A stretch of DNA of 64,000 nt from an uncultured Candidatus Saccharibacteria bacterium (GCA_964469335.1 CAYXYK010000001.1:14501-78500); one strand, 5' to 3'; shown: positions 17,702 through 34,000, counted from the stretch's first letter. Notes: a model not told the origin generated them from the letters alone. Numbers and translations: made by a program.

Positions 17702-20700
17702 TTAGGAAACCTTACTTACCGAAAGCATGTCTCCGACGGAGTAGCTCGCTGCACCAACTGCCGATAGGAGTTCGGACTCAAATTTTCTGGCGACTGCCTC
17801 ATGATCTTTGGTCACAGTAAGGGTGACACGGTCACTCGGCCTTAGATCCGCTTTTTTGCGCAGATCTTGCACTGTACGGATGAGATCACGGAGGTCTCCC
17901 TCCTCCTTGAGCTCGGGAGTGATGGTAGTATCGAGTTTTACTTCTTTCCCTTCACGGATCTCTTTTACGTTTACCTCGTCGGCAACTATCTCGGCAAGCT
18001 CCTTGGAAAGTTTCGGTGCTTCAAGGTAAGCAAGCGGCTGGCGGACCTTGATCCCGGCTTTTGCTCTAGCCTCAAGGGCGAGAGTGACAACCCTTCGAGT
18101 TTCCTCCATGTCAGAGAGGATGGAGCTCGCAGCAACACCGATGTCCGGCCAACTCTCGAGATGCACACTCTCTTTCTTCCCCTCGATCGGAAGTCTGAGA
18201 TAGAGATCTTCGGCGAGAAATGGCATTAGAGGGGCAATAAGGCGCGAGAACTGAAAGAGTACCCATCCTGTTGTCGTTCGAGCAGAAAGCGCATCCGCTT
18301 CATCTGCGCTCTTGAAACGGTCACGGGAGCGGCGTAGATACCATGTCGAGAGGTCATCGAGGAACGGCATGACTGGGCGTGCCGCCTTATCGAGCTCATG
18401 GGTGTCGAGGTGATGCGTCACCTCTGCGTGAGTCTCATACCAACGTGCAAGAATGTAACGGTCGAGGATATTCGATGACTTCGGCGCTTCTCGTGAAATC
18501 GTATGTCCTTCGCTATAGGTATCGAAGAAGGAACGGACATTATCGACACGCAGATTGATCTTCTTAAACACCTCATCAACTCCCATCATCGAAAACCGCA
18601 ATTCTTCCCCTCTGACGACTGGAGAATTGATCATATAGAAACGGAGTGCGTCCGCACCGAACTTCGCCGCAAGCTCAAGAGGGTCTGGGTAGTTCTTAAG
18701 TTTCTTGGACATCTTCTGTCCATCTTCAGCGAGTATGAGACCGGTGGTGATGACGCTTTTGAATGCGGAGCGGTCAAAGAGTGCGACAGAAAGGATAAGC
18801 ATGGTATAGAACCACCCACGGGTCTGATCGACCGCTTCGGCGATGAAGTCCGCCGGGAAATTCTTCACGAACATCTTTCCTTCCGGCGTACGCTCGTCGC
18901 CCATGTAGTGGAACTGCGCGAATGGCATCGAACCTGATTCGAACCAACAGTCGAACACATGTGGGATGCGCTCCATCTTGCCAAGTTCGCAGCTGCAGTG
19001 ATAGGAAACACGGTCGACGAACGGACGATGGAAATCGAGCTCATAGCTATCGTTGTGTGTGATCGGTGCGAAATCAAGCGGGCGAATCTCAGCGTTGTTA
19101 ATGTAGTCTTCTCCCTCGAGCTCTCGCATCGCGGATGCCTCTTCGCGGGTCGCACCCTTTGCGACCGCATTCATGAGCCATACTGAATACTCATGCGCGA
19201 CAATGAGCACTTTCTTACCTTTATGCTTCTGATCGATGTCGTAGAGAAATGCACCGATGCGTTTCTTCATCTCGGTAAGTGTCTCGCCTCCAGGAGTTGG
19301 TTTGTCAAATTTCTCGAGTGTTGAGGTAAAATACGCACGATAGGTCTCGATCGAACAGCCACTGAAATCCCCAGTGTTCACTTCTGCGATCCGCTCGTCG
19401 TAAACTATCTCTTTTTTCGGGATTCCGAATGCATCAGCAGCAAGCTCGGCCGTCTCCTTGGTCCGCAGCAATGGAGAGGAGATGATGATATCAAACTTTT
19501 CTTTGATCTTTGCGGTGGAATTCCTTACTTGCGTCTTCCCTTTCTCAGTAAGATGGAATTCATCGTCTTTCTTGTAGCTGAGGATGCCACGCACGTTGGT
19601 CTCTGCCTCTCCGTGCCGCATGACAAAATACGTATTCGTCCCGCGCGTGCGACCACGGAGTTCGTCGACCGATCCGAACGCTTCGACTTTTCCGCATTTA
19701 TTGCACTTCCACACCGGAAGCGGTGCTCCCCAGTAGCGAGTTCGCGAGATAGCCCAGTCGCGTGCACCTTCGAGCCATTTCCCGAAACGACCGCCCTTGA
19801 TATTCTCCGGGACCCAATTGATCTCATTGTTCTCTTCAATGAGTCGGGGCTTCAATTTGACTACATCGACGAACCATGACGAGGTTGCGTAGTTGAGAAG
19901 CGGCCAATCACAACGCCAGCAGTGCGGATAGGAGTGGACGATATTCTCCTTCGCAAAGAAGGTTCCGTGCTCCTGAAGATACTTGAGCACGAGGATATCG
20001 GTCGAAAGACGCTCTTTGTCGTCGTCACTCTTTGGCTTCACATAGAGTCCTGCAAAATCCTTCACTTCTGACTTCATGGTGCCATCCATCGATACATGCT
20101 GGATGAACGGAAGTTTGAGCTTCTTTGCGAGTTCCATGTCTACTTCACCGAATGCGGGTGCTTCATGCACGATACCGGTACCAGATTCGATGGTGACAAA
20201 ATCTGCAGGAACGACCTTCCAGCCGTTCTCGTGATTCTCTAATTTCTCGTCTGAAGCGTAGTAATCGAAGACTGGCTTATATACTTTACCGATGAGGTCT
20301 TTGGCGGGAACTTCAGTCACAGCATATGACTTTTCGTCGAGTGGAATGCCTGCCTTCTCAAACGTGTGCGCCATTCGCTCCTTCGCCATCACATATGTAT
20401 TGCCCTTGTGTTCCCCGTCTGCGAATTCCACTTTCACGTATGAGATATCAGGATTGACTGCAATCGCTACATTGCCGGGTAGCGTCCACGGCGTGGTGGT
20501 CCACGCGATGAGATAGGTCTTCGGCTCATCAACGAGTTCAAATTTCACATAGACCGAAATATCTTTCACATCTTTATATCCCTGCGCAACCTCTGATGCG
20601 GCAAGAGTGGTCTCGCAGCGCGGACAAATGTGCATCGACTTATAGCCCTCATAGATGAGCTTCCGGTCATAAAGATTCTTGAATGCCCACCAGATGCTCT

Positions 20701-21190
20701 CAGTATACGAGGCATCCATTGTTTTGTAGGCGTGCTCCATATCCACCCAGCGACCCATACGCGGGACTATCGCCCTCCACTCTTTGTCATAGGTCATCAC
20801 CGAGTCGCGGGCCTTCTGGTTGAACGCCTCGATCCCGTATTTCTCGATATCGGTCTTATGCTTGAGTCCTAGTTCTTTCTCAATCAAGTTCTCGATCGGA
20901 AGTCCGTGGCAATCCCATCCCCACTCGCGGCGGACATAGCGGCCACGCATGGTCTGATAGCGCGGGATGAGGTCCTTGATAGTGCCTTGGAGGAGGTGCC
21001 CATGGTGCGGGAGCCCGGTCGCGAACGGAGGACCGTCGTAGAACACGTACGGGTCTTTCCCCTCATTCGCAATGAGTGTCTTTTCAAAAATGTGATTCGC
21101 CTTCCATGACGCGAGAATGCGTTCTTCGCGCTCAGGGAATGTCTCTTTTTTCTCAGCTTTGGCCTCGTTTTCTTCCATGGTACTCGTCAT
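17702..21190 (-). CDS. ileS: isoleucine--tRNA ligase (type 2) carrying an embedded histidine-phosphatase domain
   Basis: HIGH motif PFATGLPHHGHLL, CP1 editing domain, WAISRTRYWGAPLP, KMSKS as QKMSKKL, and a C-terminal anticodon-binding region. The ORF-track N-terminus (MSSISTR…) looks non-native. Most likely start is MTSTMEENE at 21190. Confidence 0.92.
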   Translation of the reverse strand: MTSTMEENEAKAEKKETFPEREERILASWKANHIFEKTLIANEGKDPYVFYDGPPFATGLPHHGHLLQGTIKDLIPRYQTMRGRYVRREWGWDCHGLPIENLIEKELGLKHKTDIEKYGIEAFNQKARDSVMTYDKEWRAIVPRMGRWVDMEHAYKTMDASYTESIWWAFKNLYDRKLIYEGYKSMHICPRCETTLAASEVAQGYKDVKDISVYVKFELVDEPKTYLIAWTTTPWTLPGNVAIAVNPDISYVKVEFADGEHKGNTYVMAKERMAHTFEKAGIPLDEKSYAVTEVPAKDLIGKVYKPVFDYYASDEKLENHENGWKVVPADFVTIESGTGIVHEAPAFGEVDMELAKKLKLPFIQHVSMDGTMKSEVKDFAGLYVKPKSDDDKERLSTDILVLKYLQEHGTFFAKENIVHSYPHCWRCDWPLLNYATSSWFVDVVKLKPRLIEENNEINWVPENIKGGRFGKWLEGARDWAISRTRYWGAPLPVWKCNKCGKVEAFGSVDELRGRTRGTNTYFVMRHGEAETNVRGILSYKKDDEFHLTEKGKTQVRNSTAKIKEKFDIIISSPLLRTKETAELAADAFGIPKKEIVYDERIAEVNTGDFSGCSIETYRAYFTSTLEKFDKPTPGGETLTEMKKRIGAFLYDIDQKHKGKKVLIVAHEYSVWLMNAVAKGATREEASAMRELEGEDYINNAEIRPLDFAPITHNDSYELDFHRPFVDRVSYHCSCELGKMERIPHVFDCWFESGSMPFAQFHYMGDERTPEGKMFVKNFPADFIAEAVDQTRGWFYTMLILSVALFDRSAFKSVITTGLILAEDGQKMSKKLKNYPDPLELAAKFGADALRFYMINSPVVRGEELRFSMMGVDEVFKKINLRVDNVRSFFDTYSEGHTISREAPKSSNILDRYILARWYETHAEVTHHLDTHELDKAARPVMPFLDDLSTWYLRRSRDRFKSADEADALSARTTTGWVLFQFSRLIAPLMPFLAEDLYLRLPIEGKKESVHLESWPDIGVAASSILSDMEETRRVVTLALEARAKAGIKVRQPLAYLEAPKLSKELAEIVADEVNVKEIREGKEVKLDTTITPELKEEGDLRDLIRTVQDLRKKADLRPSDRVTLTVTKDHEAVARKFESELLSAVGAASYSVGDMLSVSKVS
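19050..19650 (-). other. histidine phosphatase (PGAM/SixA-like) domain inserted between the KCNKCGKV zinc-knuckle segment and the HRPFVD…CWFESG segment of IleRS
   Basis: RHG motif (YFVMRHGEAETN), second Arg (SSPLLRTKETAE) and distal His (VLIVAHEYS). About 200 aa absent from canonical IleRS at this loop. Confidence 0.7.
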
Positions 21191-21305
21191 ACTATCGGTT
21201 TTAGCGTAATGATGCAAAATGACATGAAAATCGCGCACCCCGAAAGGTGCGCGATGCTCTTGGATTTCTCCCTTGTTATTGAAACTGCCTACGGCAGGCG
21301 TGCCG

Positions 21306-21620
21306 TCAGTGCTGCTGACGCTTGCGGAAGACGAGCCTCCGATCTTCCGCCAGCTCGACGGTGGTCCCCTCGAGCTCGGGATGCGCGTCGAGATCGACGA
21401 CAATCTTGACGCCGTCCTGGTCGAGGATGATCAGGTCATCTTCCTTGTGGCACTTGCAGGGACGCCAGAGCGGGTGAGCACCATGAAGGGTACTCTCCGT
21501 GCACAGGCGAACCGTGCTCGGGGGAACACCCCCTTGGTGCTCGGTCAGCGCCCTCATCAGGAAGGCGAACGCTTCGGACGTGATCTCGACGGCCTTTTGG
21601 CCCAATTCTTGTAGCGGCAT
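21306..21620 (-). CDS. hypothetical small Cys/His-containing protein within a GC-rich segment (strand assignment uncertain)
   Basis: 104-aa ORF with high GC3. A fully overlapping plus-strand ORF (21273..21614) is equally long. No recognisable family. Confidence 0.25.
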   Translation of the reverse strand: MPLQELGQKAVEITSEAFAFLMRALTEHQGGVPPSTVRLCTESTLHGAHPLWRPCKCHKEDDLIILDQDGVKIVVDLDAHPELEGTTVELAEDRRLVFRKRQQH

Positions 21621-21733
21621 TTGGTATGCACTCCGTTTTCTGTAGGTTGATTGAAAAGAACTTGCCTACCCCTTTATTTTGAGGGGCAGATTTATTCTAT
21701 GCCTGATTCAGAAAAAGAAAAGGGGGGCTGCAA

Positions 21734-21997
21734 TTATTGCAGCAGCTTGGCGTACACACTGTCATTCCATGTCTTCACCCCCTCAATAGCGATGATATCC
21801 TCCTTGAGTTGATGCGCTTCGTTGTTGAGCTCTTTCATCCTGAGGTTATGTGCTTTTTCTTCGACATAGAGCTGATAGCCGTGATAACGATAGAAGAAAC
21901 CAACGATGAGCATGTTGGCAATGAGCGCCATCCCCATCAATATGGTGAGCCCATCGATTTTGATTATTTCCTTGCGTTGGTATTCGCTCATGTTCAT
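21734..21997 (-). CDS. FtsB/DivIC-like septum-formation initiator (TM + coiled coil)
   Basis: 87 aa: one TM helix (LTILMGMALIANMLIVGFFY) followed by a heptad-rich coiled coil. Start overlaps the stop of the upstream gene. Confidence 0.5.
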   Translation of the reverse strand: MNMSEYQRKEIIKIDGLTILMGMALIANMLIVGFFYRYHGYQLYVEEKAHNLRMKELNNEAHQLKEDIIAIEGVKTWNDSVYAKLLQ

Positions 21998-22263
21998 TTC
22001 GTGTTACTTCCTGGGGTTGTGGTTGATCTTGCGGCGACGTCAGCGCGGAAGGCGACAAGGCGTTCGATATCGCGTGATACCTCATGCTCAGATGCTGTTT
22101 GTTCTTTTCTTAGCTCAAGCATCCCGAGATAATGCCAAATGAATGACACCAGCGATACGATGAACATGGTGCCGAGCACGATGCTCCACACTCTCCCCAT
22201 TGGTGTCTCTGGCACCGATTCATCTGCTTGCCTATTGTTCGTTTCTGCTTCCATTTTGTACAT
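21994..22263 (-). CDS. FtsL-like small membrane coiled-coil protein
   Basis: 89 aa: TM helix (WSIVLGTMFIVSLVSFIWHYL) plus coiled coil. Start overlaps the argS stop by 1 nt. Confidence 0.45.
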   Translation of the reverse strand: MYKMEAETNNRQADESVPETPMGRVWSIVLGTMFIVSLVSFIWHYLGMLELRKEQTASEHEVSRDIERLVAFRADVAARSTTTPGSNTK

Positions 22264-23990
22264 TACATTCTATCGGGAGCAGGAATCGCAAGCAACCCAA
22301 GTCCACTCTTCATAATGTGAGATGTCACTTGTACAAGTGCGAGCTTGTACGGCTCATCGACAGCCCCGTCGAGAACCATGGTGCTCCCATAGAATGCATT
22401 GAACTCACGAGCAAGTTCTATGAGATACGTGGCGACATGATGTGATTCGCGCTCACGCATCGCGCGCTCAACGATCTCCGGATAACGAAGAATGTATCGA
22501 TGCAGCGGAATGATTTCACCTTCCGGAATCAGTTCGAGATTCGCTTTCTTTCCTTCCGCCTTCGCGATGAGTGAGCGGGTACGCGCATAGGTATACTGTA
22601 GGTATGGCCCTGAATCTCCCTCAAACGACAGAGACTGCTCGAAGTCAAAGATAATATCCTTCCCTGCCGATTGGCGTAGTATCGAGTATTTGATCGCGCC
22701 GATAGCGACCTGTTCTGCGATCGAATGTTTCTCTTCATTGCTGAGTTTATCGCTGGTAATCTTGGTGAATGCCTTTGTCTTTGTTTCTTCGATAAGTGAC
22801 TCAGCGGTGATCACGTCTCCCGTTCGAGATGACATCTTACCACTCGGCAACCTGAGCATGCCGTGGGAGTAATGCTCGGTCTTAGCAGCTAGTTCAGGGA
22901 ATACCTTCCCCATCGCATCGAGTAAGACTTTGAAATAATCGTTTACCTCATTGCCGGTGATGATGATCGAAACATCGTATGGATAGGTGTCGTATTTGAT
23001 CTTCGATAGTCCCAGTTCTTTCGCTTCATAGGTCGGGAGTCCCTCTTTGTTTATAAACACGCGGGTATGCAGCCCTTTCGTCTCGTCTCCTTTGTAAACA
23101 ATAGCTCCGTCGCTCGTTTCGAATATCGCAGGTGTATTTTTTTCTACGACTTCTTTTCCGAACACACCGGTATCCGACTCAAAGAAATAGAAGTCGAACG
23201 CTTTGCCGTCACCATGGTTCGTCCCTAGGCGCTTATAGACTGTCTCGAGGTACTCAAGACTCCATGAACGACCGATATCGTAACAACGATTTACCTCGCC
23301 ATCGGACCTGTCATATATTTTTTTATTGACCGCAACGATCTCTTGCTTTGCTGCTTCATCAGTCTTGAGCGCAGTAGCTCCGACAACATATGACTGTGCG
23401 AGAAATGCGATCTTTTCTGCATGTGACAACTCCCCTTCCGGCAGTCTTGCTTTGAGCATCACCCATACAGGGCAAGCGATCTGCATGCCGACATCCCCCT
23501 GGTAACAGGCGCGCATGGTTTCTGCGCCACTTGCTTCAATGAGACGTGAGACTGACTCCCCAACGGCATTGCTCATCAGGTGTCCGATATGGAATTCCTT
23601 GAACGGATTCGGGTCGGTGTATTCAACAATGACTTTTTTACCCCTTAGACTGTCGTTCTTGCCGAAGTCGTCACCCGAAGCGATCGCCTCCTTGAGCGCA
23701 TGCACAAAATATTGTCTCGAGAGTTTGAAATTGATGAAACCTGGACCTGCAATCTCGACGGTGAGGATATTCGGATCTTCCTTTGCGGCAATTCGTGCAA
23801 CCACTTCCTCAGCAAGTTCGCGCGGATTCTTGCCGATGCGTTTTGCTCCCACCATTGCCACATTGGTCGAAAAATCACCATGAGAGAGATCAGCAGGGCG
23901 CTCTACCGAAAAGAAAATATCCGGCGGAACCAGCCCGTCAATGCTCTTTTGGATGAGGTCTACGAGTCTGTCTTTCATCGGCTGAGTCAT
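22263..23990 (-). CDS. argS: arginine--tRNA ligase
   Basis: N-terminal Arg_tRNA_synt_N, HIGH-like FHIGHLMS and a C-terminal DALR anticodon-binding domain. Confidence 0.95.
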   Translation of the reverse strand: MTQPMKDRLVDLIQKSIDGLVPPDIFFSVERPADLSHGDFSTNVAMVGAKRIGKNPRELAEEVVARIAAKEDPNILTVEIAGPGFINFKLSRQYFVHALKEAIASGDDFGKNDSLRGKKVIVEYTDPNPFKEFHIGHLMSNAVGESVSRLIEASGAETMRACYQGDVGMQIACPVWVMLKARLPEGELSHAEKIAFLAQSYVVGATALKTDEAAKQEIVAVNKKIYDRSDGEVNRCYDIGRSWSLEYLETVYKRLGTNHGDGKAFDFYFFESDTGVFGKEVVEKNTPAIFETSDGAIVYKGDETKGLHTRVFINKEGLPTYEAKELGLSKIKYDTYPYDVSIIITGNEVNDYFKVLLDAMGKVFPELAAKTEHYSHGMLRLPSGKMSSRTGDVITAESLIEETKTKAFTKITSDKLSNEEKHSIAEQVAIGAIKYSILRQSAGKDIIFDFEQSLSFEGDSGPYLQYTYARTRSLIAKAEGKKANLELIPEGEIIPLHRYILRYPEIVERAMRERESHHVATYLIELAREFNAFYGSTMVLDGAVDEPYKLALVQVTSHIMKSGLGLLAIPAPDRM

Positions 23991-24050
23991 GGACGTATCC
24001 TAGCAAATACACACAGAATTGCCGAGTTTTCAACCATACTTAAAGGAAAT

Positions 24051-24587
24051 CTAGGACTTCCCCTTCCACAGTCCGAGCACGAGCATGATCATATCAAGCG
24101 CTTCGGTCATCTTGGTAAGGTCACCCCCGTTCACGACCAGATGATCGGTAACAACGATCGGCCCGCCTCGCTCCAAACGCAAGATCTGCATTGCATCACG
24201 AAAGAACTCCGAAAAGATGTTCCGTACCGGCAAATGGATGGTTATTGTATGGAGTCGCGACCCGTAGCGTCGTTTCAATACCTCGTAGTCAGCAGAATTC
24301 TCCAAGCCTTCGACGAGAATATTCTCATTCATATCGTTCGAGTCGATCATCCGAATGACCTCGTTGGCATAGTGATCCTCTCCATGCATCCTCCTCAATT
24401 CCTCGCGCACCATTCTTTCATTCGCATATCCCGCCGCGACGCCACGACGAAGCAGTTCATCCTGTATCACGTTTCCAAAACTGACTTTCGGGAGATGAAA
24501 GACCGCCATCAGATATCCGAGTGCTTCGACCTTTCCCGATCGAGGAACACCGAGTATCGCGATGACATTCTTCTTTTCCATGTTCAT
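24051..24587 (-). CDS. UPF0200-like P-loop kinase paralog with degenerate Walker A (probable pseudokinase)
   Basis: Collinear with the upstream paralog (HGEDHYANEVIRMID, VVTDHLVVNGGDL), but its P-loop reads GVPRSGKV instead of GMPGSGKT. Confidence 0.7.
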   Translation of the reverse strand: MNMEKKNVIAILGVPRSGKVEALGYLMAVFHLPKVSFGNVIQDELLRRGVAAGYANERMVREELRRMHGEDHYANEVIRMIDSNDMNENILVEGLENSADYEVLKRRYGSRLHTITIHLPVRNIFSEFFRDAMQILRLERGGPIVVTDHLVVNGGDLTKMTEALDMIMLVLGLWKGKS

Positions 24588-25156
24588 TACAGGCTTTTGG
24601 GGAGGTCAAGCTCCTTCATGATCGCATCAAGCCTCTCGGTCATCTCTGATAGCGTACCTTCATTCTGAACGAGGAAATCCGCGACTGCGATCGGTCCTCC
24701 TTGTTCAAGGCGAACGATCTGTGATGCGTCACGATGCTCTGCTTCTTCTTTCGTGAGCGGCCGGACCGGTCTGGTCGTCAGGCGATGATGACGGAGTGTC
24801 GGAGAAGCATAGATCGCGACGGTATGGAGCCTGTCGCCAAAGTGACGCTTGAGCACTTGGAATTCGGTCCAACTATAGAGGCTCTCGACGAGGATATTCT
24901 CGCCTTCCTCGCTTTGGTCGATCATCCTTATGATCTCATTCGCATAGTAGTCCTCGCCGTGGATCTCGCGGAGCTCTTCACGCACGCTACGCTCGTTCGC
25001 CGCGTTGATGGGAAGCCCTCGACGCTGCATCTCGTCGAAAGTGACCTTGCCGAAGTATACCTTCGGGAGATGATAGACCGCGATGAGATATTCGATGGCC
25101 TCGGTCTTCCCTGACCCGGGCATCCCCAAGATTGCGATGACATGTTTCTTTTCCAT
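24587..25156 (-). CDS. UPF0200-like (archaeal-type, dephospho-CoA-kinase-like) P-loop nucleotide kinase
   Basis: Walker A ILGMPGSGKT, VAIYASPTLRHHRL and ADFLVQNEGTLSEM, matching my recollection of the UPF0200 family signature. Confidence 0.7.
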   Translation of the reverse strand: MEKKHVIAILGMPGSGKTEAIEYLIAVYHLPKVYFGKVTFDEMQRRGLPINAANERSVREELREIHGEDYYANEIIRMIDQSEEGENILVESLYSWTEFQVLKRHFGDRLHTVAIYASPTLRHHRLTTRPVRPLTKEEAEHRDASQIVRLEQGGPIAVADFLVQNEGTLSEMTERLDAIMKELDLPKSL

Positions 25157-25243
25157 ATCGCCATCATACAGGGAGAAACAGAAAAAATAAAAAGTACTCC
25201 GTGGTAAAGAAAGGCGGCGAGGGTTACCCCTCGCCGCACGGTA

Positions 25244-26350
25244 CTAGTCCGTTTTGAAATGCTTCGACAGTCTTGCGCCGGACTGTGCTCGGTAATTCGA
25301 CGTACCGAGTAGGTCATAGTGCACATCAGGCACCTCGCACATCCGTTCAAGCCGAAAACGCGACAAAGGCTGTCCATGGCGGAAACACAGACGACGTTCG
25401 TTGGAACGAACTTCGAGCGTGATGGTCCGCCCGCGCCCCTCGCCAAGCGCACCGTAACCCCAGCCGGGATCGATGTACCCGGCGTAATGGGAACGGAAGT
25501 CACCGCTTCGCGAGTCGAGGTCCACCGCCTCACAGGCGTATCCCGGTGGGATGCGAAGAGTCTCCCAGGTCGAGAGGATGTAGAAACGATCACGCTCCGC
25601 CTCGAAGACACCCTTCCTGACCCGAACTTCGTCGAAGAAATCCCGCCAATCGACACTGCCGGTCGCCGACCCGAAGTCGAACACCTCCTGCGTTCGCTTC
25701 GCCGCATAACCCGCAACTTCGCTTTCAAGGTCGATCGAGAGGATGAGCGACCCGTCGTGATCGTTCGCGATCATCTTGCTGTAGGCGACCGGATCGCCGT
25801 TCGGATAGCAGACGAAGGGATTCACTTCGGTATACGCGAGCTCCATTTCGAGCTCTGAGAGCCGCGTGTCACGGTTGAAGAATCGCACCTGAGAGACAGC
25901 GAGGCCGGGCGGCATCAAGACAGGATAAGAGTTCGGGTTGACGATCGCCCACGCCTTGCCGGAGTACCCAGAAGGTGTGAGTGCGTCGAACCGCGAAACG
26001 CCGTCCGCAACGATGCGGACATGGACATCGTTCCGCCCTGTACTCGACTTTGGATTCGCGAACGCGTAGATCGAAGGCGGAAGTGCGAACTCCTCCTCAA
26101 GCGGGATGAGATAGGTCTCTCCCACCGTGAGTGGATTGTCGATGCTGTACGGACGCGCACCGAGCTCCTTCGCGAGCGGGAAGACCGCTTCGCCCTGCTT
26201 CGGCAGGAATGATCCTTTGATGCGATAGCACTCGCCGCCGAGATGCACATCGAGGGATGCGGGGCTCGGTGCTCCGCGAACATTCCTGATGAAACCGTTT
26301 TTCACGAGTTCGCCGATCAACCGATCGGGGAGCGCGCCGTTTTGTACCAT
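25244..26350 (-). CDS. dcd: 2'-deoxycytidine 5'-triphosphate deaminase, long form with a tandem dUTPase-like fold (DCD family)
   Basis: N-terminus collinear with Dcd (LPDRLIGELVKNG…SLDVHLG), two copies of the IDPGW-type core (GYSGKAWAIVNP and AGYIDPGWGYG), 368 aa. Local GC looks about 10 points above the surroundings. Confidence 0.75.
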   Translation of the reverse strand: MVQNGALPDRLIGELVKNGFIRNVRGAPSPASLDVHLGGECYRIKGSFLPKQGEAVFPLAKELGARPYSIDNPLTVGETYLIPLEEEFALPPSIYAFANPKSSTGRNDVHVRIVADGVSRFDALTPSGYSGKAWAIVNPNSYPVLMPPGLAVSQVRFFNRDTRLSELEMELAYTEVNPFVCYPNGDPVAYSKMIANDHDGSLILSIDLESEVAGYAAKRTQEVFDFGSATGSVDWRDFFDEVRVRKGVFEAERDRFYILSTWETLRIPPGYACEAVDLDSRSGDFRSHYAGYIDPGWGYGALGEGRGRTITLEVRSNERRLCFRHGQPLSRFRLERMCEVPDVHYDLLGTSNYRAQSGARLSKHFKTD

Positions 26351-26414
26351 GATGTAACCTCCATGATGGATGTTGAAATTGAGAAGATCCTCTCACGTAG
26401 TCCTATCATGTGAC

Positions 26415-26463
26415 CACACAAAAGAAAAGCCGCTTCACTTGAAGCGGCTTTTCTTTTGTGTGG
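26415..26463. terminator. strong terminator hairpin (23-bp perfect inverted repeat) downstream of rplK
   Basis: cacacaaaagaaaagccgcttca-ct-tgaagcggcttttcttttgtgtg. Confidence 0.7.
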
Positions 26464-26468
26464 AGTAT

Positions 26469-26894
26469 TTATTCCTTAACAGAAATACCCATCGACCTTG
26501 CGGTTCCGGCGACGATCTTCATGGCTGCTTCTATTGAAGCGGCATTGAGGTCCGGCATCTTCTTCTCAGCGATTGCACGGACTTGTTCCTGTGTTAGCTC
26601 ACCCGCCTTCTGAGTGCCTGGTTTGTTCGATCCCTTATCCTTACCCATCGCCTTCAAGATGAGGCGGGAGACTGGAGAGACCTTGGTAATGAAAGTGTAG
26701 CTTCGATCATCATAGACCGAGATCTCTACCGGAATGATCTCGCCCATCTGCGTTGCGGTTGCTGCATTGAACTTGGTGACGAAGTCACCGATGTTGATAC
26801 CAGCCTGACCGAGTGCGGGGCCTACCGGAGGAGCCGGAGTTGCCTTACCGCCCGCGATCTGGAGTTTCAGTTTCTTTGTAATGTTTTTTGCCAT
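26469..26894 (-). CDS. rplK: 50S ribosomal protein L11
   Basis: Full-length L11 collinearity ([14 protein letters not shown]…). Confidence 0.97.
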
Positions 26895-26999
26895 ATGGAT
26901 CTATTTTATTTGTGAACTGAGAAGCGAGAAGCCCTATCAAGTAGGCACTTTTCAGGTGCTCTCGATACTACTGAATATTGTGCTATTTAGCAAGAACCA

Positions 27000-27569
27000 T
27001 CAGATCTTCTTGATCTGGAGGAAGTCGAGTTCGACAGGAGTCTCACGCCCGAACATTGGGACCATGACTTTCACGCGACCGCGCTCTTCGTCGACTTCTC
27101 CAACACGGCCTTCGAGCTCTTTGAACGGTCCGTCGGTGATGATGACCGATTCGCCGACCGTAAGATCAATCGTGTGCTTTACCGTCTTCGATCCCATCCG
27201 ACCGAACAGACTGTCGATCTCTTTCTGGTCGAGAGGAACCGGCACGACACCTGCCCCAACGAAGCCGGTAACACGAGGAGTGTTGCGGACCACATACCAA
27301 GAATCCGGATCATAGATCATATTCACAAGCACATAGCCTGGATAGATCTCTTCCTCGACTTCGGCGCGCTTACCTCCCTTCATTTTTATCTTCTTCTCTT
27401 TAGGAACAACGACTTCGAAGATCTTATCTTCCATGCCGAGCGACTCGATACGTTGCTTGAGATTGCGGACGACCGCGTTCTCATAACCGGAGTACGTGTG
27501 GATCGCGTACCAGAAGCGGCCCGGCTGCGCAGAGAGAAGACCTGAAGTTTCTACTGTTTTTTCATCCAT
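27000..27569 (-). CDS. nusG: transcription termination/antitermination factor NusG
   Basis: NGN domain (WYAIHTYSGYENAV) and a C-terminal KOW (GESVIITDGPFKELEGRVGEVD). Confidence 0.95.
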   Translation of the reverse strand: MDEKTVETSGLLSAQPGRFWYAIHTYSGYENAVVRNLKQRIESLGMEDKIFEVVVPKEKKIKMKGGKRAEVEEEIYPGYVLVNMIYDPDSWYVVRNTPRVTGFVGAGVVPVPLDQKEIDSLFGRMGSKTVKHTIDLTVGESVIITDGPFKELEGRVGEVDEERGRVKVMVPMFGRETPVELDFLQIKKI

Positions 27570-27590
27570 GGTGATTAATATTACGGATGA

Positions 27591-27767
27591 TTAAATGAAA
27601 TGCTTGAGCCCAAGACTGAACAGGAAGTCGAGCAGGCCGAGGAATAGTCCCGTACCGATCGAGATCGACAGTACGATGATCGTGTAATTGATCGTCTGTG
27701 TGCGGTTCGGCCAACTCACGTGGCGAAGTTCCCCTCTCGTGTCTCTCAAATAGTCGATGAATCCCAT
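27591..27767 (-). CDS. secE: preprotein translocase subunit SecE (58 aa, below the ORF-track length cutoff)
   Basis: Manual translation of the minus strand gives MGFIDYLRDTRGELRHVSWPNRTQTINYTIIVLSISIGTGLFLGLLDFLFSLGLKHFI, a single-TM SecE fold in the canonical secE-nusG-rplK order. The overlapping 100-aa track ORF 27562..27864 is out of frame. Confidence 0.7.
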   Translation of the reverse strand: MGFIDYLRDTRGELRHVSWPNRTQTINYTIIVLSISIGTGLFLGLLDFLFSLGLKHFI

Positions 27768-27801
27768 AAGTGTTTCTGTGATCTGTTAATCTTTCCCTAG
27801 G

Positions 27802-27826
27802 AAAAAACGCCCGCAGGCGTTTTTTC
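27802..27826. terminator. terminator hairpin
   Basis: aaaaaacgcc-cgca-ggcgttttttc. Confidence 0.5.
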
Positions 27827-27898
27827 AGTTGAGTTGAGTATACTCTTTTCTCCCCCGTCGTCAAGCTGGGATTATCCCTAAAATACCCTTATTTCAGG

Positions 27899-28747
27899 CT
27901 ATTTTATTTCGTAGACGATGGTGACCGATGAAGTGTACTTGTTCTGTCCTGCCGGGATGTTTGCCGCCTCGGGCGCAATCGCTGAATCCGCCGACATCGC
28001 CTTCATCATCACTCCACCTCCATACCCGTAGATCGGATAATTCCCCCCTTCACTGAAGGACGAGATGCGCACAAGGCTCACTCCGAGATCAGCCGCGAGT
28101 TTCTCAGCTTTCGCCTTTGCTTTTGCGATCGCTTCCTCGCGTGCGACCGATTTTGCGGAATCTTCGTCTTCGAGCATGAAGTTCGGACCGGAAATATTCG
28201 TCGCACCATTGTCTGCAAGACCGCCGACGATGGTTCCTGCAAGGTCTGCATTCTTGTCGATATCGTGTATTTTCACATCGACACTCTCGGACACTTCGTA
28301 TCCGATCAAAACTTGCTTACCGGGAGGCTGAACACACGGGTACGCTATACACTCGATGCGTTTCTCCTGCCATTCATACTTCGGATAAAGGTTGTAGCCC
28401 GCTTTGATATCCTCATTCTTCACTCCAGATTTGTTGAGAAAATCATGGATCTTCTTCATCTTGTCATCGACGGTCTTACGAGCCTCTGCGGCGGTCTTTG
28501 CCTCTTGAGTGATCGAGAACGAGATCGTTGCGACATCTGGCGTAGCATATGATTCGCCTTCACCCGTCACAGTGATTGTCGGCTGCGCATTCACATCGCG
28601 CCCAATGAGACCGTACTCTTTGATGTTCGAGAAGAACATCGAGAGGAGGACGAGTGCGCCCGATACTGCAAGCAGAAGTACGCCGTACGCCACCTCTTTC
28701 GGGGGCGTCATGCGAACATTCATCTCACCTGAATTTTCTGTCGTCAT
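27899..28747 (-). CDS. SIMPL/DUF541-domain (YggE-like) periplasmic protein
   Basis: N-terminal TM anchor, then the characteristic SIMPL two-half architecture (…ITVTGEGESYATPDVATISFSI… and …GPNFMLEDEDSAKSVAREEAIAKAKAKAEKLA…). Confidence 0.7.
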   Translation of the reverse strand: MTTENSGEMNVRMTPPKEVAYGVLLLAVSGALVLLSMFFSNIKEYGLIGRDVNAQPTITVTGEGESYATPDVATISFSITQEAKTAAEARKTVDDKMKKIHDFLNKSGVKNEDIKAGYNLYPKYEWQEKRIECIAYPCVQPPGKQVLIGYEVSESVDVKIHDIDKNADLAGTIVGGLADNGATNISGPNFMLEDEDSAKSVAREEAIAKAKAKAEKLAADLGVSLVRISSFSEGGNYPIYGYGGGVMMKAMSADSAIAPEAANIPAGQNKYTSSVTIVYEIK

Positions 28748-28862
28748 AAAACGTATATTAATTGATTAACGATAGCTATACCTATATTAACATTATTCCT
28801 AGCCCTTTTGTGACATAGGCGTACTGCCCTGTCCCAGGATCTCCAAGACGTCCGATGGAGAC

Positions 28863-30656
28863 TCATTTTACTGTGACTGACTTCGCCAAGTTCCTGGGTT
28901 TATCAGGGTCATTTCCCTTGAGAAGCGCGAGGTGGTACGCCAACAACTGAATGGGGATAAGGCTTGCGATCGGTGACGCAAGTCCGAGATCCGGTACAGG
29001 GATCCATTCGTCAAAAAGCATGTCGTTCTCTGGCGCGATACCAATGATGTACGCACCGCGGCTTTTGAGTTCTGTGGTATTCGACTGCATGTCACGCTTC
29101 GTCTCATCGTTAGGGATGATCGCAATCACCGGTGTGCCTGCTCCGATGAGTGCGATCGGTCCATGCTTGAGTTCACCACCAGGAAACCCTTCGGCGTGGA
29201 TGTATGAAACCTCCTGTATCTTGATCGCCGCTTCATGTGCGATTGGTGCAGAAAGTCCTCTCCCGATGATATAGAGATCCGTCGCAAGGCGAAGCTTCTC
29301 GGCAACTTTCCTTGTATCGTGAACGATGTCACCGAGCAGCCAAGCACGGATATCGCGTACGACGCCACGGAGCAAGTGCTTACCTTCAGAAAGTTTCCCT
29401 CCCGCCGCATAAGCCAAAAGCAAGAGCACTGCGATCTGCGCTGTAGCTGCCTTTGTCGACGCAACGGCAATCTCAGGACCTGCGTTGATATAAAGTGAGC
29501 GATGAGATGTTCGATCGATCGATGAATCCACTACATTAAGAAGCGAGATGATCTTTGAGCCATGCTTCTTTGCTGCGGCAAGTGCTTCGAGCACATCCGC
29601 AGTCTCGCCGCTTTGAGAGACTGCGAACAATATACTGCGCTTGTCGAGGAACGGAATATACGCTGAGAACTCAGAACCGACGAAGGTTGACGCGAGCTTG
29701 CCACCGAGCTTCGCGAGATAGAGTTCTCCGAGCTTAGCCATCTTTGCCGCCGTACCGCAACCGATGAAGAACAGGTTTGGAGAGGATTTGAGCAGCTGCA
29801 CGATGTCCATCAATTTCTCATCATCTTGGCGGATCGCCTGATCGAGCGAGTGAGGTTGTTCAAGTATCTCCTTGAGCATGTAATGCGCGTAACCGTCTTT
29901 CGTTGCACTCACTTTGTCCCAAGTAATAGTGCGCCACTCGGGGTCGACCTTTTCTCCTGTCTTCTGATCACGAAAAAGGATATCTTCTGCACGCAATTTG
30001 ATCGAGACCGCATCACCGGGATACGCGACGACGCGGGTATGATCGATGAAAGCAGGGACATCAGACGCGACGTAGTACCCTTCATCACTTTTCCCTATCA
30101 CCATCGGAGACCCGACGCGCATCGCCATCAGATATGATTCGCCTTGGCGCATTGCAACAATCGCGTAGCGTCCCTCAAGCATCTTTCCTGTCTCGGAAAA
30201 AGCTGCCTCGAATGTTTTCCCTGTACTCATGAAATGCGCTATGAGCTGCGGGATCACCTCGGTGTCGGTATCTGACAAGAACAACTCACTCTCTGGAATA
30301 CCCGTCACCTCAACCAAATGGCGACGTAGTTCGTGATGATTCTCGATGATCCCGTTATGGATCACCGCAATACTCTTGTCGCGCGAAAGCTGCGGGTGAG
30401 CATTCTTCTCGAGTACTCCGCCGTGTGTGGCCCAACGGGAGTGGCCGATGGACATCTTTCCGACAATTCCTGAAAAATCAGACTCGCTTTTCTCGGATAT
30501 CTTCCCGACCGCACGGAGTAATTTCAGTTCGCCCTTCATTGGCGCAGCGATTCCCCACGAATCATAGCCGCGATACTCGAGATCACGGAGTGCGAAATAT
30601 GCCTTAACGGCAACTTCCTCTTCCCTCTTGCCGACATAGCCAAATATTCCACACAT
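28863..30656 (-). CDS. glmS: glutamine--fructose-6-phosphate aminotransferase (isomerizing)
   Basis: N-terminal MCGIFGY (Cys2 glutaminase) followed by two SIS domains. 597 aa. Confidence 0.95.
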   Translation of the reverse strand: MCGIFGYVGKREEEVAVKAYFALRDLEYRGYDSWGIAAPMKGELKLLRAVGKISEKSESDFSGIVGKMSIGHSRWATHGGVLEKNAHPQLSRDKSIAVIHNGIIENHHELRRHLVEVTGIPESELFLSDTDTEVIPQLIAHFMSTGKTFEAAFSETGKMLEGRYAIVAMRQGESYLMAMRVGSPMVIGKSDEGYYVASDVPAFIDHTRVVAYPGDAVSIKLRAEDILFRDQKTGEKVDPEWRTITWDKVSATKDGYAHYMLKEILEQPHSLDQAIRQDDEKLMDIVQLLKSSPNLFFIGCGTAAKMAKLGELYLAKLGGKLASTFVGSEFSAYIPFLDKRSILFAVSQSGETADVLEALAAAKKHGSKIISLLNVVDSSIDRTSHRSLYINAGPEIAVASTKAATAQIAVLLLLAYAAGGKLSEGKHLLRGVVRDIRAWLLGDIVHDTRKVAEKLRLATDLYIIGRGLSAPIAHEAAIKIQEVSYIHAEGFPGGELKHGPIALIGAGTPVIAIIPNDETKRDMQSNTTELKSRGAYIIGIAPENDMLFDEWIPVPDLGLASPIASLIPIQLLAYHLALLKGNDPDKPRNLAKSVTVK

Positions 30657-30752: not shown

Positions 30753-31046
30753 ATGAAGAGCTCAAAAGATATTCGTGAACTGGAGAAGCTTTCCGCTGAA
30801 CTTGCGCCCAAAAGCGGCTGCACAGTCTGTAGGCTGATCCTCATTGCGACGGTAATTTTATTCGTATCATCGGTATTACTCGCGCTATTTGCCCTCGGAA
30901 GTGCACGTTCGAACCTCGAACGAATGGAGCCAGAGCGGGTACTGACTCCAACACAATCCTCAGAGCGTATCCAGGTACTGCGTGAGTACATAGAAAGCCA
31001 ACGCGGTTCCACCACGCTTCTTATCGGTAAACCCCAAACAAAATGA
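30753..31046 (+). CDS. small single-TM membrane protein, hypothetical
   Basis: 97 aa, TM helix RLILIATVILFVSSVLLALFAL. Stop overlaps the start of the downstream giant gene (ATGA). Confidence 0.4.
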   Translation: MKSSKDIRELEKLSAELAPKSGCTVCRLILIATVILFVSSVLLALFALGSARSNLERMEPERVLTPTQSSERIQVLREYIESQRGSTTLLIGKPQTK

Positions 31047-34000
31047 AGCACACCACATTAGTGCGCGCATTCTTTGCCGTCATTCTCACTACGCTCTTTG
31101 GGTCACTCTTCTCTACTGCTTCTGCCGCAACCGTGTCGATCATCAATAACTGGCAAAACCCCGCGCCGTATTCTTTTTATAGCTACACGAGCCCCGTTCA
31201 TGTCGTCGGATCATATACCCTTCCCCCCGACTGGGTCGGCACTATATATGTCTGGCAGGACGGAGTACAGCTCCCACAAACGCTGACGGTCAGCAATCTC
31301 GGAGGAGTAACACCGAAAAATGCCCCATTCGACATCAATCTCGGGATCCAGCCAGCAGTACCTTCTCCTCATGAGATCAGTATTGAATTCTTTGGCGGAG
31401 CATCGTGTTTCATTCTTAATACTTGCCCCGGAACATCAAGCAACTGGACTGATGAATCGATCGTCCCGCGCACCTATACCGCATCGAACACACCGGATCC
31501 GGTGCTCGCAATTTCCTATGATGCGAACGGAACCATCCCGCTCCAAAGTCCTGCGTTCGATTTCGCCAACGTCCCAATGAACACGACCGACACCCGCACA
31601 CTCTATGTACGAAATGTCGGTGGTGGAACCGCGATTGGTGCTGCGTCTATCGCAGGTGGCTCCAATCCGTTCTATTGTGTCGGGACTTGCACCTACTCTA
31701 TCCTCGCCGGTGCCCCTGCGATACCGATACAGGTGCAGTATGCGCCCGGAAGTGCCGGGATGACTTCCTCCGGGGTACTCGCATTCGGCTGTACTTCCCC
31801 GAATTGTGCAGGGGTGAATGCAAATCTTACCGGAAGCAGTGTTGCATCCGCGGTTCCTCCGCAACTTGACCTCAGTGACAGCTATCTAAGTTATGGATAT
31901 GTGAACATCAACCAGTCAGTCGACCAAGATATCACCATCTATAATACCGGCGGCGGAGTGCTGTCCGGCTCGCTGACCTTCGGAGACCCGAGCTACTCGT
32001 GCATCCCAAGCTGTAACTACTCTATTCCCGCGGGAGGTTCATATACCCTCACTGTCAGATTCAACCCGACCACGGGTGGTGACCATGACACGAATGCCAC
32101 ATTCACAGGTGGTGCGACCCCTGAGACGATTGCTATCTACGGAAGCGGCAATGCTAAACCGATCATCGACATCAATTGTGTCGGGTGCGACGGCGTAGGG
32201 TCAGGTGGACAATACCACTGGGATCTTCCGAATCCGGTTGCGCCGGGACAGACTCTCTACCAGACGATCGAAGTCAGCAATGTCGGCGTCGGGGTATTGA
32301 GCGGCATTGTGACACCCACGCCGGGATCTTGGAACACGGCTGGTTGGCATTGTGTAAGTGTCACCCAAGGCGGCATTACAACGCCTTACACCGATGCAAC
32401 GCCGTGTGCTTATTCAAACCTCGTCAACGGCGGGCCACCCGCGATTGTCCAATTGTCTTTTGTCGCATCGGTTGCGAATGTTGGCCCACAGCATGACTAC
32501 ACATATTTCAGCAACACACCCAATCCGAGCGATGGACCTGACGACCTGGAACTTTCAGCTGCGGTGACTGTCGACCCATTACTGAATATCACAGGACTCG
32601 GGGGTGAACTTGTTTTCGTCGACACGCTCGTCAATGTTGCGACATCTGATCTCTACGGCAATGCAAGCGACGCAATTTTGCTTGAGAACGTCGGCACTAC
32701 ACCGCTCACGGTCGTGATCAATCTCCCGGTCGGGGCAGGTGTCTTCACCTGCGTCAATCCGCTTCAGTGCAACACACCGATCATCATCGCGGCAGGCGCT
32801 ACAGTTCCGGTCGCATTTTCCTTCAACCCGCCGACGCCATACTCGTACAACCAACCGTTCACCATCTGCGTCAGTGGAACCTGCGGCAATTACAGCATGC
32901 GAGGATTGGGGCAGAACCCTCAATTCGGCATTCAGTCGGTGATTCCGGGAGGAGAGAATATGGACCCGATGAAGATCTGCGCAGAGGAAAATAACACTTG
33001 CGCGTTCACCGGAACAAAGACCGTCTTTTTCGGCAATAACACCAAAAATGTTTCGAGGAGTGCAACCGGTGGGGTGTGGTGCGACATTGCTTCTTTTGGG
33101 AGTGACCCTGCCCCGGGTGTCAATAAATATTGCTGGTACGCGAACACGAACTCCGGGACTTGGACAAACAAGCCCTGGACGACAAGTAACCTGTTTGCGA
33201 TCTACAACAGTGGCATCGGTGGTACGATCTACTATAAGATCACAAGCCCGACTGATTTCAAATGCAGTACCTCGCGAAGTTGGTCCGGCTATTGCCAGGG
33301 ATATGTGTTCAACTATGACGAGCAGGATGTCAGCTACGGTGGTGATATCAAATATGCTCCCATCTACTTCAATCCGACTATTGCCGGACCGATCAGTCAA
33401 ACATTGACCATCCAATATCACTTTGTCGCATGGGATGGTTACAGCCCCCCAGATTGTAATTACTGCCACACAACGACTACGCCACTCACGGGAACTGGAA
33501 TCTCTGGCGCTCACCTATTTGCCATAACGACACCATTCCCCACCACCAATGTCGGCGCAAGTTCTACGGTGAATCTTACGGTATACAATGATGGAACAAC
33601 GGTAGATAATGGTGTCACTGTCAACTATGTGAGTGGGGAGTTCAGCTGCACTGCGAACTGCGGGCCATACAACCTCGCACCGGGAGGAAGTCAGATCGCG
33701 CAGGTCACCTTCAGCCCGACCAGCGCCGGCACAAAGAACGGAAGCTTCTTACTTACCTCAACGGATCCTGTCCCGGTCGGACCGGCAAGTGTCACTGTTC
33801 CGATGACAGGAGTGGGCAACGCGTCCCCTGTCGTCGGCATCCTCAATCCTGTCGGGGGCAGTCTCGACTATGGCGTAGTCAACCAAGGATCACAACGTGT
33901 CTCGGGGGATGGCACGCTTCCTGCGATCATCGTCACGAATACCGGGGCGGGACTTCTTACCGGGGACGCGACTCTGGTCGATGCGGTGCACTATGTCTGT

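Follow-up and report, generated by a model that had tools for sequence, protein, structure and literature searches.

Introduction

The dCTP deaminases (Dcd) of the dUTPase fold supply dUMP for thymidylate synthase; for the long form of the enzyme, the product of which is dUTP or dUMP, no enzymological study is known to us. A deoxynucleotide deaminase also occurs in anti-phage defence, where DcdV joins a P-loop kinase and a zinc-dependent deaminase of the cytidine deaminase (CDA) fold in a single fused protein that is under small-RNA control and lies on the genomic island VSP-1 (bioRxiv 10.1101/2021.03.31.437871). Two further sources (PMC7304191; bioRxiv 10.1101/2022.01.07.475337), each with reference to Brown et al. 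2015, describe a subset of Parcubacteria as lacking ribosomal protein L1. Here we compare these systems with a locus in a 64,000-nucleotide stretch of DNA recorded as coming from an uncultured Candidatus Saccharibacteria bacterium (GCA_964469335.1 CAYXYK010000001.1:14501-78500; hereafter the window, with positions counted from its first letter). In this locus a long-form dcd gene and two small P-loop kinase genes, called kinA and kinB here, stand between the ribosomal array secE-nusG-rplK and argS.

A preliminary description of positions 24051-26463 had read the three genes as a horizontally acquired insert in the place of rplA, serving either as a split version of an anti-phage kinase and deaminase or simply as an acquired module for dTTP biosynthesis. 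Of these two options, the biosynthetic one is supported by the thymidylate genes that accompany the locus across relatives. We consider it likely that the segment is a housekeeping locus for thymidylate (dTTP) supply in its normal, ancient place beside rplK, not an anti-phage island, and that its dcd copy was swapped in from a GC-richer relative. In such a locus, Dcd would make dUTP or dUMP that feeds thymidylate synthesis, and KinA would phosphorylate pyrimidine deoxynucleoside monophosphates. The second kinase gene, kinB, would have arisen long ago by duplication of kinA and has lost catalytic residues of the P-loop and LID; it is held under purifying selection in several lineages and is dispensable in some strains. 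The resident dcd would have been exchanged, within a variable slot, for the copy of a GC-richer related Parcubacterium.

Thymidylate cassettes between rplK and argS

Close relatives, defined by a NusG 90-96% identical to that of the window, were compared over loci of about 17 kb; loci of relatives are referred to below by handles beginning with L. The window itself reads rplK, dcd, kinA, kinB, argS. Four loci from other samples with DNA 97-99% identical to it (L001-L004) read rplK, dcd, kinA, argS, and L005-L007 have thyA on the opposite strand between rplK and a dcd, kinA, kinB, argS series. In L091, two small genes, thyA, dcd and kinA fill the interval between rplK and argS, and in L008 it is filled by dcd and tmk. 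The order rplK, dcd, kinA, tmk was found in L094 and L123, with overlapping start and stop codons in L094. Two loci without dcd (L093, L124) carry genes for dihydrofolate reductase (DHFR), dCMP deaminase, ThyA and serine hydroxymethyltransferase (SHMT) ahead of kinA, kinB and argS, and L131 has rplK, thyA, DHFR, SHMT, a different small kinase, tmk and argS. All occupants of the slot have their place in dUMP/dTMP metabolism or in the folate cycle on which thymidylate synthase draws, and the edges of the slot are stable, with rplK on one side and a kinase-(tmk or kinB)-argS series on the other. The rplK-kinA interval is a variable slot for alternative thymidylate cassettes.

The same neighbourhood extends across the class. 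We collected 80 species-representative GTDB loci around long-form dcd, of which 69 were informative in that they had enough upstream sequence. In 56 of these 69 Parcubacteria loci the array secE-nusG-rplK lay just upstream of dcd in the same orientation, with a gap of less than 300 bp in 14 of them; the gaps, where present, were filled by thyA, thyX, DHFR, tmk, NUDIX or similar genes. Downstream of dcd, argS was found in 33 of the 80 loci of the species set as well as in every close relative, and tmk stood near dcd in 21 loci. This species scan, made with a Dcd alignment, returned relatives of at most 47% identity and no close ones, and served for class-wide synteny; a metagenome scan with the single Dcd protein returned matches of at most 53% identity and nothing on the close clade. 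The named Dcd homologs were all Parcubacteria (Nomurabacteria, Yonathbacteria, Giovannonibacteria, Kaiserbacteria, Jorgensenbacteria, Vogelbacteria and others).

As had been noticed before, rplA does not follow rplK, and a tblastn search with four Parcubacteria L1 proteins found no rplA in the 64-kb window. An rplK without a following rplA was likewise seen in L001-L010, L091, L094, L123 and L131. The gene is present at this site in distant loci that retain L1, where it stands in the order rplK-rplA-dcd with dcd still in place: this order was found in six of the most distant loci, among them a Uhrbacteria genome (PF00687 Ribosomal_L1, E 8e-60), and L125 and L126 also keep rplA between rplK and dcd. 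The locus of L125, a distant Parcubacterium, reads rplK-x-rplA-dcd-thyX-kinA-tmk-dut, its dcd being of the short form. Because L1-retaining relatives have rplK-rplA-dcd, rplA was lost from a pre-existing order and was not displaced by dcd. The organism probably belongs to the L1-lacking Parcubacteria subgroup, the absence being read within the 64-kb window, and the loss of L1 in this subgroup would be the reason why rplK is directly followed by dcd. The idea of an insert interrupting the ribosomal array in the place of rplA is thus not supported, rplK-dcd being the standard arrangement and the loss of L1 clade-wide.

The long-form dCTP deaminase

The deaminase had been described as a protein of 368 amino acids with a tandem dUTPase fold, and domain searches and structural alignment confirmed this. 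DCD_N (PF06559) matched residues 4-159 (E 4e-35) and DCD_C (PF22569) residues 198-365 (E 9e-39), and the Dcd profile aligned with PDB 2R9Q from Agrobacterium tumefaciens at E 1.7e-80, residues 4-367 onto 9-369. Membership in the family rests on Pfam, and the score of 253.9 bits for the equivalog model NF005734 lies below its cut-off of 283 bits. Across 17 sequences including the window Dcd, K101, S102, G105, R106, D294, P295, G296, W297, L312 and E313 were invariant. The C-terminal catalytic segment also aligned with the Escherichia coli and Methanocaldococcus jannaschii type at E 1e-5 (TIGR02274, E 7e-11), and a short-form Dcd occupies the corresponding locus of some Parcubacteria (L125, L129).

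Between the window and strains L001-L004, dcd differed by nine synonymous and zero nonsynonymous changes, and its divergence equalled that of the flanks. On both counts dcd is a settled, functional gene in these strains, and the retention of the invariant residues likewise predicts a functional enzyme.

The KinA family

KinA aligned with the UPF0200 protein SSO1041 of Sulfolobus solfataricus (E 3e-12, residues 6-179 onto 3-173). Its AlphaFold2 model (pLDDT 93.5) retrieved 3LW7 as the first Foldseek match (TM 0.79/0.87), followed by adenylate kinases, UMP-CMP kinase and dephospho-CoA kinases (CoaE). The earlier assignment of both kinases to the UPF0200 type therefore stands for KinA; KinB is a paralog of KinA that has lost motifs. 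In KinA the Walker A motif GMPGSGKT is intact, and the LID arginines R122, R125, R129, R132 and R142 are conserved. Pfam offered only the generic AAA_17 and AAA_18 models for the two kinases, and the Tmk profile PF02223 matched neither KinA nor KinB, the P-loop alone being shared with the Tmk of L008. KinA scored 30.5 bits against PRK08356, below the cut-off of 189 bits; judged by such profile comparisons, it is a family of the Candidate Phyla Radiation (CPR) related to PRK08356 but separate from it. A literature search on the term UPF0200 found no paper.

CPR bacteria commonly carry members of this family, at 50-57% identity. All of the contexts sampled were thymidylate clusters, whichever deaminase or thymidylate synthase was used: dcd-thyX-kinA-tmk-dut in L125, as given above; a dCMP deaminase-kinA pair beside DHFR and thyA, downstream of rplK, in L127 (Nomurabacteria); and dcd-thyA-DHFR...kinA in L129 (Moranbacteria). 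Among phage families, KinA aligned over its full length with the deoxynucleoside monophosphate (dNMP) kinase family phrog_139 at E 1.5e-6, and its best match was phrog_10255, labelled "kinase" (E 5e-14). The small kinase that stands in the slot of L131, between the thymidylate genes and tmk, matched phrog_139 at E 1e-21 and is about 25% identical to KinA. From the UPF0200 and nucleoside monophosphate (NMP) kinase fold, the thymidylate contexts, the phrog_139 match and the slot kinase of L131, we infer that KinA is most likely a deoxynucleotide kinase of the pyrimidine branch with a dNMP substrate.

The notion that KinA is a simple replacement of tmk was considered and rejected, kinA and tmk standing side by side in L094, L123 and L125.

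KinB, a predicted pseudokinase

KinB is 56% identical to KinA. Its Walker A motif reads GVPRSGKV where KinA has GMPGSGKT, with the loss of T18 and G14; 12-14 residues are deleted from the LID, three family-conserved arginines are gone, and EGLENS replaces ESLYSW. These motif changes are common to the orthologs in L005, L093 and L124, and dN/dS against the L124 ortholog is about 0.04, which argues for a maintained pseudokinase and against a decaying gene. KinB is accordingly predicted, from its motifs, to be a pseudokinase. The segment that contains kinB is cleanly absent from L001-L004, which have 29 unrelated bases in its place, and the position of kinB is that of tmk in L094, L123 and L131. 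KinB may act as a non-catalytic partner of KinA.

A bolder extension, which we hold to be rather doubtful, is that KinA belongs to a core deoxynucleotide kinase family of CPR thymidylate operons that was also the source of the anti-phage kinase domain, that tmk has been displaced by a dead KinB, and that KinA, with or without KinB as a regulatory partner, phosphorylates dTMP. If this were true, KinA would be a non-orthologous replacement of the near-universal tmk.

GC excess and probable exchange of dcd

The preliminary description had placed dcd about 10 GC points above its neighbours, and windowed GC and GC at third codon positions (GC3) bore this out. The gene has a GC of 0.593 and a GC3 of 0.702, compared with 0.499 +/- 0.025 and 0.542 +/- 0.049 in the 50 other genes of the window (z = 3.8 and 3.2); the GC of the window as a whole is 50.1% and that of dcd 59.3%. 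No 368-codon segment of another gene reached the GC or GC3 of dcd, and the GC maximum among 1258 sliding windows of 1107 nt was the one at 25201. In the sliding analysis GC3 ranged from 0.68-0.78 within dcd, stayed at 0.72-0.77 in the three opening windows of kinA (about 360 nt) and then dropped to 0.53-0.58. Taken whole, kinA was mildly elevated in composition (z = 1.8) and kinB ordinary, and in rplK and nusG, both likely highly expressed, GC3 was only slightly raised.

This excess is not a general property of dcd, because the window exceeds all of the 68 other Parcubacteria loci measured. The difference between dcd and the rest of its locus averaged +1.6 GC points in these loci, with a maximum of +8.2, and was +9.2 in the window; the GC3 difference between dcd and neighbouring housekeeping genes averaged -0.01, with a maximum of +0.10, and was +0.16 in the window. 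Among nearer relatives, thyA and dcd are both GC-elevated in the sister lineage L005 (0.58 vs about 0.49), dcd shows little or no excess in L008, L094 and L123, and L091 is GC-rich throughout (GC3 about 0.72).

The trees of dcd and of its neighbours disagree. Dcd is 76% identical to the window protein in L091 and 68% in L008, whereas ArgS and RplK are 66% and 83% identical in L091 and 76% and 91% in L008. In quartet tests, the window grouped with L091 in 97% of the bootstrap replicates for Dcd; for ArgS, 87.5% of the replicates joined it to L008 and 0% to L091. An RplK+NusG identity above 87% normally goes with a Dcd identity of 60-84%. Between the window clade and L094, Dcd identity is 42-45% (44% for the window) despite an RplK+NusG identity of 87.6%, a distance at which about 72% is typical. 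A third Dcd type, about 41% identical, is carried by L123, and three types that are 40-45% identical to one another occur in organisms with NusG more than 90% identical. Overall, Dcd identity correlated with housekeeping identity at a Spearman coefficient of 0.51. Composition and tree conflict together suggest that a GC-richer relative among the Parcubacteria supplied the copy that took the place of the resident dcd; the direction and timing of such an exchange are inferred.

The named nearest homologs of Dcd being all Parcubacteria, the source was not a foreign phylum. Thus the horizontal acquisition proposed in the preliminary description holds in part: GC, tree conflict and slot variation point to an exchange of dcd among related Parcubacteria, and no foreign phylum is involved.

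Similar cases were seen elsewhere. In two other pairs of Parcubacteria (L048 with L058, and L036 with L055), RplK+NusG are 85-87% identical and Dcd only 44-49%; with their low Dcd identity, these pairs show that replacement of dcd in a conserved slot is not unique to the family of the window. The Tmk of L008 (9186-9869) shares 71% identity with its counterpart in the distant L125 (6557-7249; RplK 56%) and only 26-39% with those of the nearer L094 and L123, and on this protein comparison tmk appears to have been exchanged between lineages as well. The ThyA genes of the sister lineages are GC-rich (L005, 5468-6328; L091, 1634-2494). The L005 protein is 62-64% identical to Anaeromyxobacteraceae proteins compared with 48-51% for named Parcubacteria, an identity pattern that hints at acquisition from outside the CPR in the L005 and L091 lineages; a published study reports that thyA has been transferred into Patescibacteria (PMC12455944).

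Weighing the alternatives

Several observations weigh against a thymidylate supply locus with an exchanged dcd. No thymidylate synthase, tmk or dut gene was found in the 64-kb window, and the downstream pathway is assumed. KinA is not merely an analogue of Tmk, because it co-occurs with tmk in several relatives, and the JGI label for the KinA family is dephospho-CoA kinase. The quartet test has a very long outgroup branch and unequal composition, under which distance methods can mislead. Synonymous sites between the dcd genes of the window and L005 are saturated (dS about 1.7), yet GC3 is 0.67-0.70 in both; a single old transfer followed by neutral amelioration therefore fits poorly, and a later or repeated exchange, or a local force that raises GC, is needed. 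The GC3 excess at the 5' end of kinA forms a clear step in the window and is weak in L005, and, as to a possible recombination end within kinA, the identities of its N- and C-terminal parts to relatives do not separate.

A dcd inherited vertically, whose GC and fast protein divergence came from GC-biased gene conversion in a recombination-prone slot or from codon selection, would account for part of this, since a persistent local force explains high GC3 at saturated sites better than unameliorated DNA does. The frequent recombination of the slot and the correlation of Dcd identity with housekeeping identity agree with it. We nevertheless regard the absence of any transfer as unlikely: an excess of this kind in the GC3 of dcd is missing from 53 other Parcubacteria loci and likewise from L008, L094 and L123, rplK and nusG are hardly raised in spite of their likely high expression, and both the conflict between gene and species trees and the three Dcd types speak for exchange. 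At the other extreme, the whole block could have been acquired recently from a foreign, non-Parcubacteria lineage of higher GC at the cost of rplA-rplJ-rplL. Although no gene of the window deviates more in GC than dcd and the ThyA of L005 has its closer relatives in Anaeromyxobacteraceae, with thyA transfer into Patescibacteria on record, this seems very improbable to us. The named relatives of both Dcd and KinA are Parcubacteria or other CPR, the rplK-dcd...argS order runs across the class, rplA was lost clade-wide with L1-retainers showing rplK-rplA-dcd, the composition of kinB is ordinary and that of kinA only mildly raised, and the divergence of dcd between strains is that of its flanks.

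An anti-phage function through deoxynucleotide depletion, in which the genes would form a split two- or three-gene version of the DcdV fusion and remove dCTP during infection, draws its appeal from the kinase. Residues 4-176 of KinA aligned with positions 154-329 of the 630 in the PADLOC dCTPase model at E 1.7e-10 and 38.5 bits, a remote homology, and KinA and the family members tested matched about positions 151-334 of 630 at E 1e-8 to 1e-12 (five relatives); the NCBIfam antiphage_deaminase model matched the family at E 1e-4 to 1e-6. Some CPR relatives (L127) have kinA immediately behind a zinc dCMP deaminase of the ComEB type, the presence of kinB varies among strains, and the locus shows signs of gene exchange. 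The deaminase of the window, however, is a non-zinc Dcd of the dUTPase fold that has no HAE...PCxxC motif and no PADLOC match, and KinA scored 20.8 bits for NF041025, which has a cut-off of 400 bits. Kinase and deaminase are separate genes and not one polypeptide, with the deaminase upstream of the kinase. The position next to rplK is conserved in at least 56 species, so that the context is a housekeeping one and not a variable island, and the neighbours in relatives are biosynthetic (thyA, thyX, tmk, dut, DHFR, SHMT). Between strains dcd is purely under purifying selection, and of the marks of an island we found no tRNA in the window and no integrase-like open reading frame (ORF) beside the segment. 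We give a defence function next to no credence, and the split anti-phage pair of the preliminary description was not borne out.

The thymidylate supply locus with an exchanged dcd thus remains the reading that we prefer, and its main value is that it offers a lead to the function of the KinA family and a view of a cassette-swapping slot. The link between KinA and thymidylate gives a testable function to an orphan family and a plausible housekeeping origin to a defence domain. The rplK-argS interval behaves as a site at which cassettes for dUMP/dTMP supply are swapped among close relatives, and very small genomes would in this way alter a core pathway by trading its genes within their group. 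For CPR genomes there is also a caution, in that a gap in a ribosomal operon together with a GC bump can mimic an island; in this case a published loss of L1 throughout the clade accounts for the gap, and the next gene adjoins rplK across the class.

Locus layout and regulatory elements

The layout given in the preliminary description (secE-nusG-rplK, a hairpin, dcd, a second hairpin, two P-loop kinases and argS) was confirmed by ORF calls and Pfam, and the coordinates are collected in Table 1. Past argS on the minus strand, three small ORFs and then ileS were called.

Table 1. Features of the rplK-argS region of the window.
Feature	Positions	Strand	Basis or description
secE	27591-27767	minus	PF00584, E 6.5e-17
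nusG	27000-27569	minus	PF02357, E 2e-26, and KOW motif
rplK (ribosomal protein L11), last ribosomal gene of the array	26469-26894	minus	PF03946 and PF00298, E ~1e-26
rplK terminator hairpin	26414-26463	minus	23-bp perfect stem, 4-nt loop
dcd leader	26351-26413	minus	possible promoter, palindrome, GGAGG ribosome-binding site
dcd, long-form dCTP deaminase, 368 aa	25244-26350	minus	PF06559, PF22569, PF22769
Hairpin 3' of dcd (terminator or attenuator)	25214-25237	minus	10-bp stem
kinA, 189 aa	24587-25156	minus	AAA_17/AAA_18; UPF0200-type kinase
kinB, 178 aa	24051-24587	minus	AAA_17/AAA_18; degenerate kinA paralog
Segment containing kinB, present or absent among strains	24030-24599		comparison with L001-L004
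GC3-rich tract: dcd and about the 5' two-thirds of kinA	24800-26350		sliding GC3
argS, conserved downstream anchor	22263-23990	minus	PF00750, PF05746, PF03485

Two hairpins bracket dcd, as had been proposed, the second lying a few bases from the 25205-25232 first given for it. The rplK hairpin is flanked by an A-run on its near side and a T-run on its far side, and the intergenic region folds with a free energy of about -54 kcal/mol; with this symmetry the terminator could act in both directions. In the hairpin 3' of dcd, nine of the ten stem pairs are G-C, and a T-rich stretch follows (CTTTCTTT). Terminator-like sites as such were not enriched in 21000-29000, where nine were found and 7.4 were expected from shuffles. 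We therefore credit the two hairpins on their length, which is much greater than the scan minimum, and on their conserved position, the same gene ends in relatives carrying equivalents. A hairpin with a T-run follows rplK in L001-L005, L008, L091 and L123 as well, and in L005 it sits between the convergent genes rplK and thyA; a hairpin equivalent to the one 3' of dcd is present in L001, L005, L091 and L008. Since relatives have them at the same gene ends, the hairpins are ordinary intrinsic terminators and not insertion boundaries.

The leader of dcd contains TGATAGGACT, which resembles an extended -10 element; from these elements dcd, set between two intrinsic terminators, appears to be served by a promoter of its own. 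Just 5' of the GGAGG ribosome-binding site lies the palindrome TGAGAGGATCTTCTCA (26370-26385, minus strand), kept in L005 and not in L008, a candidate for an operator or for a small hairpin with a regulatory role. The leader is conserved with L005 as GTGATAGTACT...AGAGGATCTTCTCA...GGAGG, and L008 and L123 have a similar TGGTAGTACT / TGGTAATAC element. An Rfam search at gathering thresholds gave 0 matches in 64 kb, and thus no known leader or riboswitch before dcd.

Other genes of the window

The isoleucyl-tRNA synthetase encoded by ileS (17702-21178, minus strand, about 1158 aa) has a PGAM-like histidine-phosphatase domain (PF00300, with an RHGE motif) inserted in its catalytic region. The insertion is kept in all of the relatives of the family whose synthetase was seen (L001, L005, L093, L094, L131). 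The glmS gene (28863-30656) differs at 130 of 1794 bases from L002 and L003 and at 28 from L001, in strains that are otherwise 99% identical, which suggests a recombined stretch within the gene. On the plus strand, 31043-34519 encodes a predicted surface protein of 1158 aa with faint matches to Ig-like domains of the ASH, HYDIN and Cep192 type, and this gene adjoins the locus in L001, L008 and L094 too. An ORF of 651 aa (15101-17056, minus strand) had no Pfam match at E 1e-4 or better.

Comparison with known systems

The absence of rplA after rplK, and from the 64 kb, is the feature that the organism shares with the L1-less Parcubacteria; all of its named relatives are Parcubacteria. Its deaminase has the tandem dUTPase-like architecture of the long-form Dcd represented by 2R9Q over the full length, and the motifs KSSTGR (N-terminal half) and RSG.FR, DPGW and LE (C-terminal half) are conserved. 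The clade of the window differs in forming a long branch, 36-48% identical even to other Parcubacteria Dcd. With the homotrimeric Dcd of E. coli and the bifunctional DCD-DUT of M. jannaschii (PDB 1OGH) it shares the fold and the reaction class of non-zinc dCTP deamination; the homotrimeric enzymes have about 190 aa per subunit, whereas the window protein is a single chain with two fused barrels.

For KinA, the closest structures are those of SSO1041 (PDB 3LW7 with AMP, and 3H0K; annotated as "adenylate kinase related"), which it resembles in P-loop, LID arginines and length. The two are only about 25% identical, SSO1041 has no assigned function, and the link to thymidylate clusters is seen here in CPR bacteria. 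The phage dNMP kinases (PHROG 139; Pfam DNMK PF21448; T4 gp1 type) are related through the full-length phrog_139 match of KinA; the P-loop of KinA reads GSGKT, compared with GSGKD in the L131 kinase, the stronger phrog_139 match.

DcdV (NF041025; PADLOC dCTPase) resembles the locus in that its N-terminal P-loop kinase is a remote homolog of KinA and in that a kinase is paired with a C-to-U deoxynucleotide deaminase. It differs as a fused zinc protein of the CDA fold on an island, whereas the window has separate genes, a dUTPase fold and a housekeeping position. The genes of the window would act on the same metabolites as DcdV, with no sign of the same purpose. A possible counterpart is found in two relatives, L127 (4495-5555) and L093 (1705-2559), where, within a thymidylate cluster, a zinc dCMP deaminase of the ComEB type stands directly upstream of a KinA-family kinase, at a gap of 3 nt; the first gene matches the deaminase part and the second the kinase part of the model for anti-phage dCTP deaminases. 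Judged by these matches, the pair may be the unfused housekeeping counterpart of the defence fusion.

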